Of a stretch of DNA of 64,000 nt, positions 8,262 through 38,956 are shown piece by piece. The position numbers and the translations under genes were made by a program. Positions within the stretch are counted from its first letter, which is position 1; each line of letters opens with the position of its first letter. The notes under the pieces are model-generated. The model was not told the DNA's origin. It searched no databases and saw nothing but the letters and a program-made list of their open reading frames with translations. Origin of the DNA: an uncultured delta proteobacterium (GTDB lineage: Bacteria; Desulfobacterota; Desulfobacteria; Desulfobacterales; Desulfosalsimonadaceae); assembly GCA_963826785.1 (NCBI GenBank), contig CAWGYD010000001.1, positions 512,001 through 576,000 of the forward strand, written 5' to 3'.

Positions 8262-9676
8262 CCGAATCCCTCCTCTCCCTGAATGTCGAGCATGTCTGCA
8301 TCCTCAGGTGTTTTCTTGACCGGGAGCACGAACCGGTCCGGGTACTTGGCAATGGCCAGCAATTTGTACATCTCCTTCGCATCTGTTTCCGTCAGGCCGG
8401 TCTGTTCAAGGCCCCCCGCATCGGCCCGGCCGTCCACCTCCATGCCCCGCATGTATTGGCGCAGCGCCATCAGCCGCTTCAGGGACAACCGGACCGGGGT
8501 CTCGTCACCGGCGGCCAGGAGATTGGCCAGGTATTTTACCGGGATGCGCATGGCATCGATCACCTCATCCGGTGTCGCCGCATCGGAAATCCCGCCTTTT
8601 ACCGGGCTCATGGGCGGCACGTACCAGACCATGGGCAGGGTCCTGAACTCCGGGTGCAGCGGCAGGGCCAGCCGCCAGGTTTTAATCAATCGAAACACCG
8701 GCGACCGGCGGGCCGCTTCCAGGTAACCCGGGGGGATCCCCTGTTTTTCCGCGGCCTGCATCACTTCTGCATCACTCGGGTCCAGGATCAGATCCAGGTG
8801 CGCCGGGTAGATCTGCCCGGGGTCTTTCACTGCGGCGGCTTGACCGATCCGGTCCGCATCATAGAGGAGGACGCCCACATAGCGGATGCGGCCCACGCAC
8901 GATTTGGCGCACAGGGTGGTCTCCCCGTTTTCCACCCGGGGATAGCAGAAGATGCATTTTTCAGAGGTCCCCCGCTTCCAGTTGAAATAGACCTTCTTGT
9001 AGGGGCACCCGGACACGCAGTACCGCCACCCCCGGCACCGGGCCTGGTCCACCAGGACGATGCCGTCCTCGTCGCGCTTGTACAGCGCACCGGACGGGCA
9101 GGAGGCCACGCACCCGGGGTTGAGGCAGTGTTCGCACAGCCGGGGCAGCCAGAACATGAACACCCGCTCAAATTCCAGGTAAGCCTTGGCGTCGATCCCG
9201 TCGAAATTGACGTCCCCGCCGCCGGTTTCCACCGTCCCGGCCAGGTCGTCTTCCCAGTTGGGTCCCCACTTGATGCGCATGTGTTTTTTCGTGATCACCG
9301 AATGGGGGCGGATGGCCGGCTGGTGCTTTTTCCGGGGGCTGTCGGTCAGATGCTGGTAGTTATAGTCCCAGGGTTCATAGTAATCGTCGATGGCAGGCAG
9401 ATCGGGGTTGTTGAAGATGCGGGCCAGTTTGTAGAAGCGGCTGCCGGCCTTCAAACGGAGCCGCCCGTTTTTCTCCTCCCATCCGCCCCGGTAGATCGCC
9501 TGGTTTTCCCATTTTTTGGGATACCCGATTCCCGGCTTGGTTTCCACGTTGTTGAACCAGATGTACTCGGCCCCTTCCCGGCGGGTCCACACGTTCTTGC
9601 AGGGGAGGCTGCAGGTGTGGCATCCGATGCACTTGTCCAGGTTCAACACCATGGCGGTCTGCACCTTAATCTTCAT
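8255..9676 (-). CDS. narH: respiratory nitrate reductase beta subunit
   Basis: LNLDKCIGCHTCS.PCKNVW, WFNNVETKPG.GYP, LPRLCEHCLNPGCVASCP, CRGWRYCVSGCPYKK and LPLHPEFRTLPMVWYVPP. Confidence 0.97.
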   Translation of the reverse strand: MKIKVQTAMVLNLDKCIGCHTCSLPCKNVWTRREGAEYIWFNNVETKPGIGYPKKWENQAIYRGGWEEKNGRLRLKAGSRFYKLARIFNNPDLPAIDDYYEPWDYNYQHLTDSPRKKHQPAIRPHSVITKKHMRIKWGPNWEDDLAGTVETGGGDVNFDGIDAKAYLEFERVFMFWLPRLCEHCLNPGCVASCPSGALYKRDEDGIVLVDQARCRGWRYCVSGCPYKKVYFNWKRGTSEKCIFCYPRVENGETTLCAKSCVGRIRYVGVLLYDADRIGQAAAVKDPGQIYPAHLDLILDPSDAEVMQAAEKQGIPPGYLEAARRSPVFRLIKTWRLALPLHPEFRTLPMVWYVPPMSPVKGGISDAATPDEVIDAMRIPVKYLANLLAAGDETPVRLSLKRLMALRQYMRGMEVDGRADAGGLEQTGLTETDAKEMYKLLAIAKYPDRFVLPVKKTPEDADMLDIQGEEGFGW

Positions 9677-12600
9677 ACCAGTCCACCTCCCCGGCCTTTT
9701 TCACGATGATCACCTCGTCACGCTGGGCCCCGGTGGGGCCGTAATAGTTGAACCCGTAGCTGAACTGCGCATATCCGCCGATCATCTGGGTGGGCTTGAT
9801 CATGATCCGGGTCACGCTGTTGTGGGTGCCGCCCCGCTGGCCGGAGCGCTTCGACCCCGGCGTGTTGATCAGCCGTTCCTGGGCGTGGTACATGAACGCT
9901 TTTCCCCTGGGGATGCGGTGGCTGACCACCGCCTTGGCCATGACCACGCCGTTGACGTTGAAGCATTCGATCCAGTCGTTGTCGGCCACATCGATGGCGG
10001 CGGCATCCTCGCTGTTGATCCAGACCGCCTCGCCCCCCCGGAACAGGGTCAGCATCAGGAGGGTATCCGAGTAGGTGGAGTGGATCGACCACTTGGAATG
10101 GGGGGTGAGGTAGTTTAAGACGATATATTTTCCGCTCTCCCGGATGCCGGCGGTGGACCCCATGGCCCGGGTGTCCAGCGGCGGCTTGTACACGGGCAGG
10201 CTTTCCCCGAAATCGACCATCCAGGGGTGGTCCTGGTAAAACTGGGCCCGGCCCGTCAGGGTGCGAAAAGGGAGTTTCTGCTCGATATTGATGACAAAAG
10301 GGGAATATCTCCGGTTTTCCGCCTCGATGCCGCTCCAGGTGGGGGAGGTGAGGATCGCGCGCGGCTGGGCGGTGATGTCGGAAAAGGTGATCCGGTCGCC
10401 TTGCCGCTCGGCGCTGAGATGGGAAAGGGACAGCCCGCTGGTCTTTTCCACGCCGTGCCACGATTTGACCGAGGTCTTCCCGTTGGTCTCCGGGGCCATG
10501 GCTAAAATCACCTGCGCCGCGGCCTTGCCGGTATCGAGCCGGGGCATGCCGAAGCTGACCCCCGGTGCGGTGACCGTGCCGAGTTCATCCTTCAATGCCG
10601 CGTATTCGTCATCGGCCTTCCAGGAAACCCCCTTGGCCCCCATCCCTTTTTCGGCGCAGAGCGGCCCTAAAGCCGTATACATGTTGTAGGTGTTGGGGTA
10701 GTCCCGGTTCACCACGGTGAGGTTGGGCATGGTTTTTCCGGGGACGGGATCGCACTCCCCCTTTTTCCAGTCCCGGATTTCGGGCTGGGCGATTTCGCCC
10801 GGGGTGTCATGGGAAAGCGGTGTGGCCACCAGGTCTTTTTCCACCCCCAGATGCCCGGGGGCCAGCCGGGAGAACTTTTCGGCCAGGGTCTTGAATTGGT
10901 CCCAGTTGGTTTTGGATTCCCATGGCGGGTCGATGGCCGGGTTGAAGGGGTGGATGAACGGGTGCAGGTCGGTGGTGCTCAGGTCGTGCATCTCGTACCA
11001 GGAGGCGGCCGGCAGGACCACGTCGGCATACAGGGCCGAGGTGGACATGCGGATTTCAGATGTCACCAGCAGATCGAGTTTTCCCTCCGGGGCGGTCTCC
11101 GGCCACTCGATCTCCTGGGTGCGGTGCGCGCTTTCTTCATTGTTCACCGCGTTTTCCACCCCCAGCAGGTGCTTTAAGAAATATTCGTGCCCCTTGCCGC
11201 TGGCGCCCAGGACGTTGGCCCGCCAGAAAAACATCACCCGGGGAAAATTCTCCGGGCTGTCCGGGGCCTCGGCGGCAAACCGTAAGCTGCCCGATTTAAG
11301 TTGCCGGGTCACCTGCTCAATGATGGCATCATCGGTTTTTGCGCCGTCTTTTTGGGCCTGGCGGCACAGATCGATGGGGTTGCAGTCAAACTGGGGAAAC
11401 GATGGGAGCCAGCCCAGGCGCGCTGCCACGGCATTGTAGTCGGCCGGGTGCCGGTACAGGGGTGCGCGGCGCGCAGGGGGGGAAAGGGTGGTGGCATCCA
11501 GCGGGTCGTAGCGCCACTGGCCGGTGGCGAAATAAAAAAAAGAGGTCCCGTTCTGCTGCCGGGCCGGACGAACCCAGTCCAGGCCGAAGGCAACCTGCAT
11601 CCAAGAGGCGATGGGCCGGATCTTTTCCTGCCCCACGTAATGGGCCCACCCGCCGCCGTTGACCCCCTGGCAGCCGCACAGGGTGGTCAGGTTCAGAATG
11701 GCCCGGTAGGTCATGTCGCTGTGAAACCAATGGTTGGTTCCCGCGCCAACGAAAATCATGGCCCGGCCCCGGGTTTTCTCGGCGGTTTGGGCAAACTCCC
11801 GGGCCACCCGGACCGCATCTTTCGCGGCAACCCCGGTGATGGACTCCTGCCAGGCCGGAGTATACGGCTTTTTATCCTCATACCCGGAAGGATAACCGTC
11901 AAGATCGGCATCATCAGGAAAGCCGGAGGCGCCCGCTTTTGGACGGATGCCCAGGTTGGCCGCCATCAGGTCAAATACCGTGGCCACCCGGATATCGCCC
12001 CGGTCGGTCCGGACGGTTTTCACCGGCACGCACCCGGTCTTTTCTTCGATGCCGGAAAGGGCGAACACGGGAAATTTCAGATGCACCCACCCGTCGTTTT
12101 CCTCGGCAAAACTCAACAACGGGTCGATTGGCACCCCTGTGTCCGGGTGTTCGAGTTTTAAATTCCAGCGCCCCTCTTCGTTCCACCGGAATCCGATGCT
12201 GCCGTTGGGGACCACCGGCGATGCGGTATTCGCATCGAATATCACGGTTTTCCATTCGGCATGGTTGTCTTTTCGTCCCAGGTCTGCGGCCCGAAGGAAC
12301 CGGCCGGCTGCGTCGCCGCCCGTTTCGGCCGACTCGATCTTCACCAGGAAGGGAAGGTCCGTGTAGGTCTTGGCATACGGATAAAAGTAGTCGGATTGCC
12401 GGTCGATGAAAAATTCCTTGAAGACCACATGGGTCATGGCCATGGCCAGGGCCCCGTCCGTGCCGGCCTTGGCCGGCAGCCAGGTGTCGGCAAATTTCAC
12501 GTATTCCGCATAATCCGGTGAGACGGCCGCCACCTTCGTCCCCCGGTACCGGGCCTCGGTGTAAAAATGGGCGTCGGGGGTCCGGGTCTGGGGAAGATTG

Positions 12601-13391
12601 GTTCCCCACACGATCATGTAGTCGGCCCCGAACCAGTCCGCGCTCTCGGGCACGTCGGTCTGGTCCCCCCAGATCTGGGGCGAGGCCGGCGGCAGGTCGG
12701 CATACCAGTCATAGAAGCTGAGCATGGCCCCGCCGATGAGCGACAGGAACCGGGCGCCCGAGGCGTAGCAGACCATGGACATGGCCGGTATGGGGGTAAA
12801 TCCGAAGATCCGGTCCGGCCCGTAGGTCTTGATGGTGTGGATCAGCGACGCGGCCACCAGGGTGGCGGCCTCATCCCAGGAAACCCTGACCAGTCCGCCC
12901 TTGCCTCGGGCCTTCTGGTACAGCCGGATATTTTCCCGGTCGGCGGCAATGTGCGCCCAGGCCTCCACCGGGTCCGGGTGCGCCGCCAGGGCGGTGCGCC
13001 ACAGATTCAGAAGCTCCGAACGGATGTAGGGGTACTTGATCCGCACCGGGCTGTAAACATACCAGGAAAACGTGGTTCCCCGGGGGCAGCCCCGGGGTTC
13101 GTGGTCGGGCAGGGCCGCGCCGCAGCCCGGATAATCGGTCGCCTGCAGCTCCCAGACGATCACCCCGTTCTTGACATGGACCTCCCAGGAGCACGAACCG
13201 GTGCAGTTCACCCCGTGGGTGGATCGGACCTTTTTATCGAACTGCCAGCGGCTGCGGTAAAACGATTCCCATTCCCGCTGATCACAGCGCACCTCGGCCA
13301 GGCCATCGGCCAGATTTTCTTTTCTGCACGCGCGGTCTTTTCCGCGGGGGCGCAGGAACCGTAGTCTCGAAAATAAAGGGGTTCGCCTCAT
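9666..13391 (-). CDS. narG: respiratory nitrate reductase alpha subunit
   Basis: RSTHGVNCTGSCSW, EPRGCPRG, SFYDWYADLPPASPQ.WG.QTDVPES and GGYAQFSYGFNYYG; start chosen at ATG 13391 after GGAGG. Confidence 0.97.
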   Translation of the reverse strand: MRRTPLFSRLRFLRPRGKDRACRKENLADGLAEVRCDQREWESFYRSRWQFDKKVRSTHGVNCTGSCSWEVHVKNGVIVWELQATDYPGCGAALPDHEPRGCPRGTTFSWYVYSPVRIKYPYIRSELLNLWRTALAAHPDPVEAWAHIAADRENIRLYQKARGKGGLVRVSWDEAATLVAASLIHTIKTYGPDRIFGFTPIPAMSMVCYASGARFLSLIGGAMLSFYDWYADLPPASPQIWGDQTDVPESADWFGADYMIVWGTNLPQTRTPDAHFYTEARYRGTKVAAVSPDYAEYVKFADTWLPAKAGTDGALAMAMTHVVFKEFFIDRQSDYFYPYAKTYTDLPFLVKIESAETGGDAAGRFLRAADLGRKDNHAEWKTVIFDANTASPVVPNGSIGFRWNEEGRWNLKLEHPDTGVPIDPLLSFAEENDGWVHLKFPVFALSGIEEKTGCVPVKTVRTDRGDIRVATVFDLMAANLGIRPKAGASGFPDDADLDGYPSGYEDKKPYTPAWQESITGVAAKDAVRVAREFAQTAEKTRGRAMIFVGAGTNHWFHSDMTYRAILNLTTLCGCQGVNGGGWAHYVGQEKIRPIASWMQVAFGLDWVRPARQQNGTSFFYFATGQWRYDPLDATTLSPPARRAPLYRHPADYNAVAARLGWLPSFPQFDCNPIDLCRQAQKDGAKTDDAIIEQVTRQLKSGSLRFAAEAPDSPENFPRVMFFWRANVLGASGKGHEYFLKHLLGVENAVNNEESAHRTQEIEWPETAPEGKLDLLVTSEIRMSTSALYADVVLPAASWYEMHDLSTTDLHPFIHPFNPAIDPPWESKTNWDQFKTLAEKFSRLAPGHLGVEKDLVATPLSHDTPGEIAQPEIRDWKKGECDPVPGKTMPNLTVVNRDYPNTYNMYTALGPLCAEKGMGAKGVSWKADDEYAALKDELGTVTAPGVSFGMPRLDTGKAAAQVILAMAPETNGKTSVKSWHGVEKTSGLSLSHLSAERQGDRITFSDITAQPRAILTSPTWSGIEAENRRYSPFVINIEQKLPFRTLTGRAQFYQDHPWMVDFGESLPVYKPPLDTRAMGSTAGIRESGKYIVLNYLTPHSKWSIHSTYSDTLLMLTLFRGGEAVWINSEDAAAIDVADNDWIECFNVNGVVMAKAVVSHRIPRGKAFMYHAQERLINTPGSKRSGQRGGTHNSVTRIMIKPTQMIGGYAQFSYGFNYYGPTGAQRDEVIIVKKAGEVDWYED

Positions 13392-13644
13392 CCGGCCTCC
13401 GTGATGCGGTTTTTGATTGCGGCATTTTGATAACAAAGAATGCGGTTTGCAAAAAAAGTTGTCAAACCGGAGAGAAGAGGCGTAGTTTATTTGATCGGAT
13501 CATAAATATCTTGTTCCCGGTTGTCTTTGCGCGAAGAACTTTTTGAAAGTGGATAAAAAGAAGCAAAGCGAATCGACATCATAACCTTTTTTACTTCTGG
13601 CTCCTTTTTCGATCCGTGGGAATTGGAAACGCAGGGAAAACATC

Positions 13645-15872: not shown

Positions 15873-16110
15873 TTTTTATTCCCCCTCGAGGGGACTCCCC
15901 ATTTTTCACTCCCCCTTCGAGGGGACTTCTCGATTTTTTATTACTCCCTCAAGGGAACCACCCCCTTTTCATTCCCCCCTCAAGGGAACCACCCCCTTTT
16001 CATTCCCCCCTCAAGGGAACCACCTCCTTTTCATTCCCACCTCGAGGGAGCCACCTCCTTTTTACTCTCTCCTCGAGGGGATCTCCCCCTTTTTATTCCC
16101 CCCTCGAGGG
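15873..16110. repeat. tandem array of about eight ~31-bp REP-like units
   Basis: Units like TTTTCATTCCCCCCTCAAGGGAACCACCCCC repeated head to tail, with no unique spacers. Confidence 0.9.
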
Positions 16111-16583
16111 CATAGGCGCTAACTTAATGACCGATGCAATATCTTCTAATTTGTCGTTCCTCTTAAGAGCGTCATTCCGGCAGTCTTTAAGCCGGAATCC
16201 AGGAAGACGAAATGAACAGGCAACCAGCGGTATACATTCTTGCAAATAAAAGAAACGGCACCCTTTATATCGGTGTGACCTCCGACCTCATCAAGCGAGT
16301 TTGGGAACATAGAAACAATTTCGTGGAAGGGTTCACCAAAAAGTATGGAGTCCATTTTTTGGTTTGGTATGAGCTTCATGGAAGTATGGAATCTGCTATC
16401 CAGCGAGAGAAACGATTGAAAGACTGGAAACGAAAGTGGAAAATGCATTTGATTGAGAGAACGAATCCCGATTGGGAGGATTTGTATCCCGCAATCATTT
16501 AGATGGATTCCGGCTAAAAGACTGCCGGAATGACATAAAGGATGATTACGGGGGGGATACTATGCGTTAAGTCAGCGCTTATG
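16111..16583. mobile_element. non-autonomous IS4/IS231-like insertion cassette (473 bp) carrying a GIY-YIG gene
   Basis: 17-bp TIRs CATAGGCGCTAACTTAA / CATAAGCGCTGACTTAA (15/17); flanking 11-bp direct repeat CCCCTCGAGGG at 16100-16110 and 16584-16594; no transposase inside. Confidence 0.8.
16212..16502 (+). CDS. small GIY-YIG nuclease (UPF0213/YhbQ-like)
   Basis: AVYILANKRNGTLYIGVTSDLIKRVWEH...AIQREKRLKDWKRKWK.HLIE..NPDWEDL. Confidence 0.92.
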   Translation: MNRQPAVYILANKRNGTLYIGVTSDLIKRVWEHRNNFVEGFTKKYGVHFLVWYELHGSMESAIQREKRLKDWKRKWKMHLIERTNPDWEDLYPAII

Positions 16584-16675
16584 CCCCTCGAGGGGGGGGC
16601 AGGGGGGGTGTTCGGACCGGCGAAAAAAACTTATTTTAAACCCTTGTCGAGTTGAGGCCCTTGAAAGGAGCGACC

Positions 16676-17825
16676 ATGCCGTTTGATTTCTTCCTGATGT
16701 TGAAGATGCTGTTCAAGTCCGTGGTCTCCTACCGGGCCACCGGTTTGAAATTTACCCCCCAGCGGATCGCCTTCACCCTCTTTTTCCCGGTGATGTTTTT
16801 GTTCCAGGAACTGATCACCTGGGCCTGTCTGCTGCTCGATGACCAGATCTACCCCGACTACCGGAAGGTCGAGGTGAACCGTCCCCTGTTCATCGTGGGA
16901 TTTCCCCGAAGCGGAACCACTTACCTGCACCGGCTCATCGACAGTGATCCGCAGTTCACCGCGTTGAAGATGTGGGAGTTGATGTTTGCTCCCTCGATTC
17001 TTCAGAAGAAGTTTTTTCTGGCCCTGGGCAGACTGGACCGCAGAATCGGACATCCCCTTTACCGGATGGTGTTGAAATTCGAAGACAAAGCGTTTGCCGG
17101 GTCCCGCAAGATGCACCGGATCAGCCATTTCGAGGCGGAAGAAGACGAACTTATCCTGCTTCACATCTTTTCTTCGGCATTTCTGTTTTTCATGTTTCCT
17201 TTTGACGAGATGAAGCGGTTCACGCATTTCGACACGGATGTGCCCGCCCGCCGGCGCCGGGCGATTATGCGCTTTCTATAAAAAATGCGTACAGCGGCAT
17301 TTGTTCATGTTCGGCCCGGAAAAGATCTTTTTATCCAAGAACCCGGCTGGCAGCGGTAAAATCGAATCCCTCTATGAGACGTTTCCCGATGCGAAAATCG
17401 TGTGCATGGTGCGAAACCCGCTGGATGCCGTGCCCTCTGCCATCAGCTGGATGTCCTACGGGTTCAATACGTTCAATACCGATGAAAAACCCTACCAGAC
17501 AAAGCGGATCATGTCCGCCATTTCCCACTGGTACGCCTATCCCCTCATGCGGCTGGATTTAAGGGATGCGCATCAGCAGGCGATAAAAATCTACGATGCG
17601 CTGGTTTCCGATCCCGCCCCCTTTGTCAGAGGTCTCTATGAGCGGTTCGGGTATACTCTCTCCGGTGATTTTGAGGTGTTTTTAGCCAAAGAATCGGAAA
17701 AAGCGAAAAGTTATAAAAGCGGCCACGACTATTCCCTTGATCAGTTCGGCCTGACCCGTGAGCAGGTCGTGTCTGATTTTGCGCCGGTTTTTGAGCGGTT
17801 TGGTTTTCCGGAAAGGCAGGTTTAG
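16676..17825 (+). pseudogene. sulfotransferase-family protein, split by a frameshift near 17275 (pseudogene or sequence error)
   Basis: PLFIVGFPRSGTTYLHRL (5'-PSB loop) in the first ORF; LSKNP and VRNPLDAVPSAIS in the second; removing one T in CGCTTTCTATAAA restores RFYKKCVQRH. Confidence 0.75.
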
Positions 17826-21555: not shown

Positions 21556-21800
21556 ATTATCCTCTAAGATCCGTTTTGATGAAGTCATAAAAGTCTGAAA
21601 AGCATGGTCGTCGTCATTTCAGCGAAGTTAGAACCCGTCATGACGAGAATTTGATCGATGCATGCCAAGGGGACTTATGTTGAAAGGGTTCATGAAAAAG
21701 CATTCATTGAAATGAACAGGGTTTTCCGGAAATCCCAATATACGCTCAAATGATTTTTCCGTCTACCAAAACTGCAGGAAAAATAACGGCCGCCGCCGGG

Positions 21801-21882
21801 ACACCCCCCTGCCCCCCTCGAGGGGGGATTAGGACTTGAAATTACGACCAAATTCCCCCCTTGAGGGGGGGCAGGGGGGTGT
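21801..21882. repeat. REP doublet (REPIN-like)
   Basis: ACACCCCCCTGCCCCCCTCGAGGGGGGATT-spacer-AATTCCCCCCTTGAGGGGGGGCAGGGGGGTGT. Confidence 0.85.
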
Positions 21883-21916
21883 TCGGACCTGCAGAAGCCA
21901 AAAATCTGAATCAATA

Positions 21917-38820: not shown

Positions 38821-38956
38821 TTGATGAAGCCGTAAAAAGTCGGATTTTACGCTTTCGTCATTCCGGCGGAGGCCGGAATCTACTACAAACTAAGTTGGTT
38901 ATAGACTCCGGTTTTCACCGGAGTGACGAACTTTGGACTTTTTGCGGCTTCATCAA
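38821..38956. mobile_element. 136-bp MITE-like element with an internal REP pair
   Basis: 21-bp TIRs TTGATGAAGCCG(T/C)AAAAAGTC (20/21), GCT on both flanks; internal inverted GTCA(T/C)TCCGG...CCGGA(A/G)TCTA arms. Confidence 0.75.

Follow-up and report, generated by a model that had tools for sequence, protein, structure and literature searches.

The cassette that we describe here combines IS186-type ends, an exact target duplication within a family of hairpin repeats, a multicopy distribution and a conserved passenger gene, and its ends are shared with autonomous partners in other genomes. With a probability of about 0.8, we interpret it as a non-autonomous IS186-type element of the IS4 family, which is moved in trans by a transposase from elsewhere and for which the Ssn-type nuclease gene is a passenger and not the mover. 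The copy analyzed lies in a window of 64,000 nt of the source genome (G000), to which all window coordinates refer, while C-numbers denote contigs of the same genome. An earlier note had read this locus as nested layers, and its layout holds in detail. The two copies of the 11-bp direct repeat are identical, the 17-bp terminal inverted repeats (TIRs) agree at 15 of 17 positions, and the inner 30-bp inverted pair (16171-16200 and 16505-16534) agrees at 29 of 30. The 96-aa GIY-YIG reading frame matches Pfam PF01541 at 55.4 bits (cut-off 22.6), and the 473-bp cassette has IS4-family ends with no transposase inside, as claimed. Removal of the element together with one repeat copy rebuilds a hairpin repeat that nearly matches the intact copy at 21852-21889, from which it differs by one C/T exchange and the lengths of the G-runs. 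The element has a G+C content of 44%, compared with 55% for the contig, and a promoter scan returned nothing above chance level. The features are collected in Table 1.

Table 1. Features of the cassette and of its target repeat in the window.
Feature	Position	Strand	Remark
Tandem degenerate copies of target hairpin, directly upstream of cassette	15880..16094	+	read from sequence
Left half of target hairpin repeat (C-run, loop, first G's)	16095..16110	+	includes first 11-bp duplication copy, 16100-16110
Left TIR, 17 bp	16111..16127	+	identical to IS186A end at 16/17
Left spacer, A+T-rich	16128..16169	+	
Left SRM-type hairpin, CGTC-tagged	16170..16202	+	one mismatch to published SRM search pattern
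Single-domain GIY-YIG nuclease, Ssn-type, 96 aa	16212..16502	+	Y8, Y19, E66 correspond to SsnA Y6, Y17, E64
Right SRM-type hairpin, inverted	16503..16535	-	one mismatch to published pattern
Right spacer	16536..16566	.	homologous spacers in decayed cassettes of same-family genomes G013, G019
Right TIR, 17 bp	16567..16583	-	identical to IS186A end at 16/17
Second 11-bp duplication copy (16584-16594) and remaining target repeat (G-run, 3-nt spacer, G-run)	16584..16611	+	
Intact inverted pair of target repeat	21800..21889	.	+ copy 21852-21889 is the empty-site reference

Two other genes in the window deserve mention. The sulfotransferase-family gene to the right of the cassette (16676-17825) is split over two frames near 17240-17280, possibly through a sequencing indel, as other frameshifts in the assembly suggest. 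Further upstream, an ORF of 1256 aa (9666-13436) is one that we take to encode a respiratory nitrate reductase alpha-subunit-like protein.

The sibling cassettes that the earlier note had predicted exist: BLAST and TIR pairing recovered 12 complete copies at 12 different sites of the source genome, and the exact TIR pattern occurs 21 times compared with 0 for the reversed control, so the element is not a product of chance. Six copies are full-length (473-475 bp, 98.7-100% identity), with the ORF intact in five and frameshifted in one. The other six are internally deleted, five to 245-246 bp with one common deletion junction and one to 333 bp. At this junction (element base 156), the 245-bp copies hold nine extra bases that resemble an inverted gene start and lengthen the inner inverted repeat. 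Older material is also present, including a relic with an intact ORF and only the right TIR (C8:22694-23099, 94% identical), half elements on C10, C11 and at C8:322741, and a further copy of 79% identity at C6:201848. Apart from these, a 63% paralogue with different hairpins and no TIR lies at C4:167247. A repeated TIR-like 17-mer at C5:306397, C5:281061 and C10:16863 was rejected as a TIR; it belongs to the tail of a gene that, from its RT and domain V/VI motifs, is presumably group II intron-like. The three copies of this tail (C5:~305000-306570, C5:280845-281500 and C10:16650-17000) sit inside a common intergenic inverted repeat, and two of them lie within 120-260 bp of 245-bp cassettes. 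That the cassettes are an assembly artefact of a repeat-rich long-read genome is scarcely conceivable. Frameshifts are indeed scattered through the assembly, the adjoining sulfotransferase being an example, but the twelve sites have their own duplications, like cassettes occur in many other genomes, and the element recurs in sequencing run X1 (376 bp at 100%) and run X3 (325 bp with two differences, continuing into a flank that matches one site of the source genome only).

The target duplications are of the kind left by a staggered cut. A duplication of about 11 bp had been proposed, and seven of the 12 copies are flanked by a perfect 11-bp repeat; two more have one mismatch, two have 12 bp with 1-2 mismatches and one is disrupted. 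With CAT...TAA TIRs and a duplication in the range of 10-12 bp that is perfect or near-perfect in 11 of 12 copies, the cassette conforms to the IS4 type, and across genomes a duplication length of 11 bp fits 19 of 31 and 18 of 42 elements best. The seven perfect duplications represent seven different target sequences, each copied exactly and in both orientations. The prediction that targets would be CCC-N5-GGG inside palindromes is supported, with 12 of 12 targets in one hairpin repeat family and the literal motif in eight of them. Eleven of the duplications span the axis of the hairpin, with several registers and either orientation represented, and the twelfth lies in the second G-arm. Given that only 489 of the 2351 CCC-N5-GGG sites in the source genome fall inside the target family, compared with 8/8 literal-motif targets, the preference exceeds this short motif. 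Among 18 flank-unbiased duplications the polarity is C-G in 11, C-C in three, G-C in three and G-G in one.

These data also bear on the alternative that gene conversion carried a few old insertions from one copy of the host repeat to another, with no new transposition, which we consider very improbable. Two copies have different loop variants to the left and right of the cassette, right-end haplotypes are mosaic, and copies in genome G061 mix long and short hairpins, all of which gene conversion would account for. Moreover, in one X3 contig (depth 3) the full nuclease gene is joined to a flank that in the source genome adjoins a 245-bp form, and the two forms have a variant base in common. This hints at recombination that alters some copies in place, and it weakens the count of independent jumps of the 245-bp form. 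However, conversion should reproduce a single register and a single duplication, whereas the seven exact duplications are of locally distinct targets in several registers and both orientations, and one exact duplication is in the second G-arm. Joints of an empty allele of the window site numbered 0 in 4/4 sequencing runs, all of which gave short, low-depth contigs, and no excision joint was seen in the same four runs; the empty site remains a reconstruction only. Kin genomes were set aside as a source of the empty allele: six sulfotransferase orthologues have no TIR, SRM or target repeat within 600 nt upstream, and their loci are not syntenic.

The ends identify the transposition system to which the cassette belongs. 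The assignment to IS231-type IS4 elements in the earlier note was correct as to family, and IS186-like is the more precise fit. The commonest form of the cassette TIR equals the ends of IS186A at 17/17 bases; both IS186A ends start with this form, and the likeness stops after base 17. IS186A duplicates 10 bp when counted from CAT, compared with about 11 bp for the cassettes. We take IS186 to be placed in the IS231 subgroup of the IS4 family. Three complete elements of 1323-1416 bp with the same ends encode proteins that match IS186 InsL (E 5e-58 to 2e-37), and both InsL relatives tested scored above the NCBIfam IS4 cut-off (NF033592). IS4 transposases lie between the same ends in other genomes (loci L063, L068, L070 and L210, among others), and the Y-R-E-K positions are invariant in the transposase alignment A1. 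A scan for GGG plus TIR, with each species represented by a single genome, gave at least 121 stretches, and the matches listed come from MAGs named as deltaproteobacteria/Desulfobacterota, Betaproteobacteria, Acidobacteria, Chloroflexi, Planctomycetes and others. The exact TIR was found in 16 of 400 genomes drawn evenly from the host phylum (control 0) and in none of 60 kin genomes, where relics surfaced only with a relaxed pattern. Viral contigs gave 119 stretches, nearly all of them E. coli IS186 or lone matches, and no cassette. The IS231 subgroup is characterized by CAT...TAA ends and 10-12-bp duplications (PMC2266710, Table 1), and E. coli IS186 targets GGGG-N6/7-CCCC (PMC5009759). The cassette works like IS186 but is not IS186 proper, as it contains no InsL and most of its targets have the reverse polarity. 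In the left spacer, an older variant in the source genome shares 15 of 22 bases with an autonomous IS186-type end (the best of 233 ends), which may be a weak hint of descent from such an end; the window copy shares 12 at best.

The helper transposase is where the evidence is thinnest. A matching IS4 transposase had been predicted in the source genome, and it was not found there (87.8% complete), being present only in other genomes. Both tblastn and an HMM built from five IS186-type transposases returned nothing in the source genome, although the same search recovers the gene where it is known to be present. The remaining transposase candidates, four matches to PF01609 and four to NF033592 (all of the latter under the cut-off), were rejected, as none lies between TIRs. 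At 87.8% completeness, absence of the helper from this genome is not proven. Genomes G061-G065, G069 and G070, each checked singly, likewise yielded no IS186-type transposase, and such helper-less genomes hold many ends: 22 TIR matches in G061, 39 in G062 and 85 in G069, with several genomes spanning 20-85. Among 49 further TIR-positive genomes, which came from 50 of 120 loci, 11 have a transposase match, and the ends stand beside the gene in nine of these. The corresponding figure for TIR-positive genomes of the host phylum is two of 16 (this set may share one genome with the 49), and of the 60 kin genomes, without an exact TIR, three have a transposase, two of them with near-identical ends. 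Many TIRs fall at contig breaks, as with collapsed IS copies, and collapse at contig ends may explain part of the missing helpers. A genome from the host's family, G013, contains an IS186-type transposase split over two contig ends, with near-identical ends, and also a relic that matches the right half of the cassette, with its spacer, at 79% identity; the kin genomes G019 and G002 hold further relics or Ssn cassettes. This indicates that the cassette lineage is old in the family and has met a helper. An intact IS186-type transposase also accompanies repeat-carrying mini-elements in G485. Still, co-occurrence of helper and cassette is the exception in these assemblies, and it is the main weak point of our explanation.

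The repeat that receives the cassette is abundant and appears to have a nuclease neighbour of its own. With up to one mismatch allowed, the family has 257 matches in the source genome, compared with 0 for a reversed control, and is built from a pyrimidine run, a short loop, a purine run, about 3 nt and a second purine run, the runs consisting of C and G only. Sixty-two close inverted pairs form REPIN-like doublets. The only DUF559 gene of the source genome (C5:9387-9833, locus L489) has an inverted pair of target repeats at both ends and three more copies upstream, and C-run/G-run hairpins stand on both sides of seven of eight kin DUF559 loci and on one side of the eighth, as judged by eye, a regular expression having missed some. 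The target repeat is thus linked to DUF559 by association, and DUF559 proteins may be makers or cutters of these repeats. As the repeat frames the DUF559 gene, the cassette would land in the repeats of another repeat-nuclease system. RAYT was ruled out as the owner of the target repeat, since none of the five Y1 genes of the source genome has a copy within 1.5 kb. For the same reason, and with a GIY-YIG gene as its cargo, the cassette does not belong among the REPtrons (RAYT-REP). In its three-block build, the target repeat is comparable with the BoxC/PIT/TM-ECO triplex repeat (PMC4666352), though the letters differ: compared by eye, the family consensus does not conform to the TM-ECO consensus as printed there, CCCTCNCCC-N3-6-GGGNGAGGG-N3-GGGNGAGGG. 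That paper reports that no transposase or integrase was found adjoining TM-ECO. A literature search for DUF559 with palindromes found nothing related.

By its sequence, the passenger is an Ssn-type nuclease, with an SRM-type hairpin on either side. Over 93 aa, the window protein shares 63% identity with a homologue of 94 aa from N. gonorrhoeae, which is surrounded by eight NTS and is probably ssnA, judging from its length, its Y6/Y17/E64 residues and its NTS flanks. With this homologue standing in for the N. meningitidis protein, the window protein has the size and the identity (at least 60% over 75% of SsnA) that define the Ssn family, and the catalytic residues are kept (Table 1). Each window hairpin deviates from the published SRM pattern at a single base, and close variants elsewhere in the source genome match it exactly. 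The association of GIY-YIG genes with GTCATTCC palindromes, suggested by the earlier note, is seen in relatives, such hairpins standing on both sides in 51 of the 80 closest. SsnA recognises its CGTC-tagged hairpin only when the DNA is single-stranded and cleaves a few nucleotides upstream of it, with no activity shown on dsDNA, and an SRM stands on both sides of 42% of the homologues (Chenal et al. 2025, PMC11893778). With ssDNA cleavage by the Ssn/SRM system already demonstrated in print, the link between nuclease and hairpin is right but not new. By analogy, the top-strand cut site of our passenger would fall in the left spacer. The earlier note had supposed that the nuclease may propagate its hairpins as RAYT does for REPs. 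In the source genome, 24 of 39 hairpins of the window type are inside the 12 cassettes, and much of their abundance can thus be put down to the IS shell; of the 15 that lie outside, six precede a remnant of the gene start. A second SRM variant, with about 30 identical copies (e.g. window 38900-38928), lies outside IS186-type ends. Pairs of ssn genes with a common shell type have dN/dS values of 0.20, 0.10, 0.095, 0.14 and 0.093, with 0.49 in a sixth pair that differs at three places, and the five values of 0.09-0.20 among these six pairs point to purifying selection on the nuclease inside the shell.

The same shell recurs as a carrier in other genomes. We surveyed the closest 80 of 511 metagenomic matches to Ssn; both TIRs are present in 15 of these (10 distinct sites, six rows being one site) and at least one in 25, compared with two matches of a reversed-TIR control in 230,838 nt. 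Searches by TIR, blind to cargo and limited to elements of up to 1.5 kb, gave 46 complete elements in 29 families, three autonomous and 26 mini. Two mini families carry Ssn, three DUF559 and one a Y1 transposase remnant (Pfam), and the other 20 have no match to the four queries applied; the recognised coding cargo consists of repeat-flanked nucleases only (Ssn, DUF559, Y1). In 22 of the 26 the sequence folds better than shuffles (z of -2.5 or lower). There are about 10 Ssn cassettes in G061 and about 20 DUF559 cassettes in G062. IS186-type ends also enclose heptamer-like inverted repeats at L094, L242, L243, L507 and L042, which are presumably of the kind beside four-helix-bundle and GxxExxY genes. 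At locus L171 (G061:C2:510883-511532), a 162-bp insert occupies a TTAA of the cassette TIR, with the TTAA duplicated, making a fourth nested layer; this insert has its own short inverted ends, reminiscent of IS701, and a GTAG-type repeat pair.

A further reading, compatible with movement of the cassette by an IS186-type transposase, concerns the order in which shell and nuclease came together. We give slightly less than an even chance to the possibility that the SRM-ssn-SRM module can move by itself and has entered existing IS186-type MITEs repeatedly, as opposed to one shell-plus-nuclease ancestor that diversified. Shelled Ssn loci have at least seven unrelated spacer types (grouped by eye), and the same ends hold other repeat modules, as repeated capture would predict. 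In a tree of Ssn genes (83 rows, 96 columns, quick search), shelled and unshelled genes are interspersed, with 11 changes for the rows with both TIRs. However, only 6 of 79 branches are starred, and the starred branches force only two changes; several seemingly unshelled loci, moreover, have decayed TIRs with 4-5 mismatches, so that loss from a shelled ancestor also fits. The support in this tree does not suffice to decide between repeated capture and repeated decay.

Taken together, these observations suggest the following mechanism for a cassette moved in trans. An IS186-type transposase would bind both ends, excise the cassette and integrate it into a C-run/G-run hairpin, across its axis; this helper would since have been lost from the source genome or not assembled in it. 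The passenger, if it acts as SsnA does, would bind each SRM hairpin in ssDNA and cleave the strand a few bases to the 5' side. It would be kept by purifying selection in the shell and yet be dispensable for movement of the shell, because the 245-bp forms, which retain 18 codons only, nonetheless have perfect duplications in four of five copies, and most mini families lack recognised cargo. Transposition of the shell followed by decay would then multiply the nuclease gene and scatter SRM hairpins. Against this explanation stand the missing helper in eight cassette-bearing genomes, the reverse target polarity relative to IS186 and the lack of an empty allele or excision joint. The first of these would also suit a different process, in which repeat-cognate nucleases (Ssn, or DUF559 cutting its own target repeat) start a cut-and-repair movement and the IS186-like ends are relics, as would purifying selection on the nuclease inside shells, a recognised coding cargo made up entirely of repeat-flanked nucleases, and the location of every target in the DUF559-linked repeat. 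We nevertheless regard such a process as very improbable. From phylum to phylum the ends hardly vary, in contrast to the unrelated spacers and cargo, which is the pattern that recognition of the ends by a transposase would leave, and autonomous elements with these ends make duplications of equal length. In addition, cargo-less mini-elements reach high copy, as in G069, and SsnA has shown no activity on dsDNA (PMC11893778).

The components of this system are already known singly: IS186, MIC231-type cassettes moved in trans, REP-targeting IS4 elements and Ssn with its SRM. With IS186 (IS186A/IS421, InsL; E. coli, IS4) the cassette has in common the first 17 end bases and G+C-rich palindromic targets, and it differs in the absence of a transposase and in its mostly C-run/G-run targets, compared with GGGG-N6/7-CCCC (PMC5009759). 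The MIC231 cassettes of Bacillus cereus s.l. (IS231 subgroup), for which trans-mobilisation is reported (PMC6199540), similarly place two IS4-type IRs around a passenger gene with no transposase. As described there, the present cassette works like MIC231; we liken it to that description and do not count it as a member. Its ends fit CAT-------AA--TAA and the DR of 10-12 partly (PMC2266710, Table 1), and it differs from MIC231 in size (74-650 bp across the cassettes, compared with about 700-3000 bp), in its cargo of a repeat-nuclease module or repeat pair, and in occurring in other phyla. REP-targeting IS (ISRm22 of the IS4 family, IS1397 and IS621; Tobes and Pareja 2006, PMC1525189) also insert at the palindrome axis, but they are autonomous, whereas the cassette is non-autonomous and brings a second repeat system. 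Like the Ssn unit of Neisseria with its NTS/SRM (PMC11893778), the window unit has a single GIY-YIG domain with Y/Y/E and an inverted SRM-type hairpin on each side; unlike NTS-ssnA-NTS, it is enclosed in IS ends and multicopy, with five intact ORFs in full cassettes. In its accessible text, that paper likens NTS-ssnA-NTS to an IS and hypothesises mobility, with no movement shown and no outer TIRs described, and 12 of its 14 supplements contain no IS4, IS186, MITE, DUF559 or 'terminal inverted'. CGTC repeats are apparently without a dedicated transposase, according to Di Nocera 2013 (PMC3733652). An IS4-ended cassette with Ssn, DUF559 or another repeat-nuclease module was not found in searches of the open literature.

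A broader reading, which we offer tentatively and hold to be possible rather than probable, is that IS186-type ends serve as a general shuttle across many phyla for repeat-plus-nuclease modules of three unrelated classes (Ssn GIY-YIG, DUF559 Vsr-like and Y1 HUH), as well as for bare repeat pairs. DUF559 modules would seed the C/G hairpins at which the transposase aims, and the shells would multiply the modules. If true, this would supply the missing mobility route for CGTC/SRM repeats, and the E. coli IS186 transposase should move the cassette. As the cassette has the ends of E. coli IS186, a laboratory strain of that species would allow an immediate test. The cassettes also provide many natural Ssn-SRM pairs in compact form, together with an abundant hairpin repeat tied to DUF559. 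For the spread of CGTC/SRM repeats and Ssn genes, they present a case in which a classical DDE shell multiplies the whole module.
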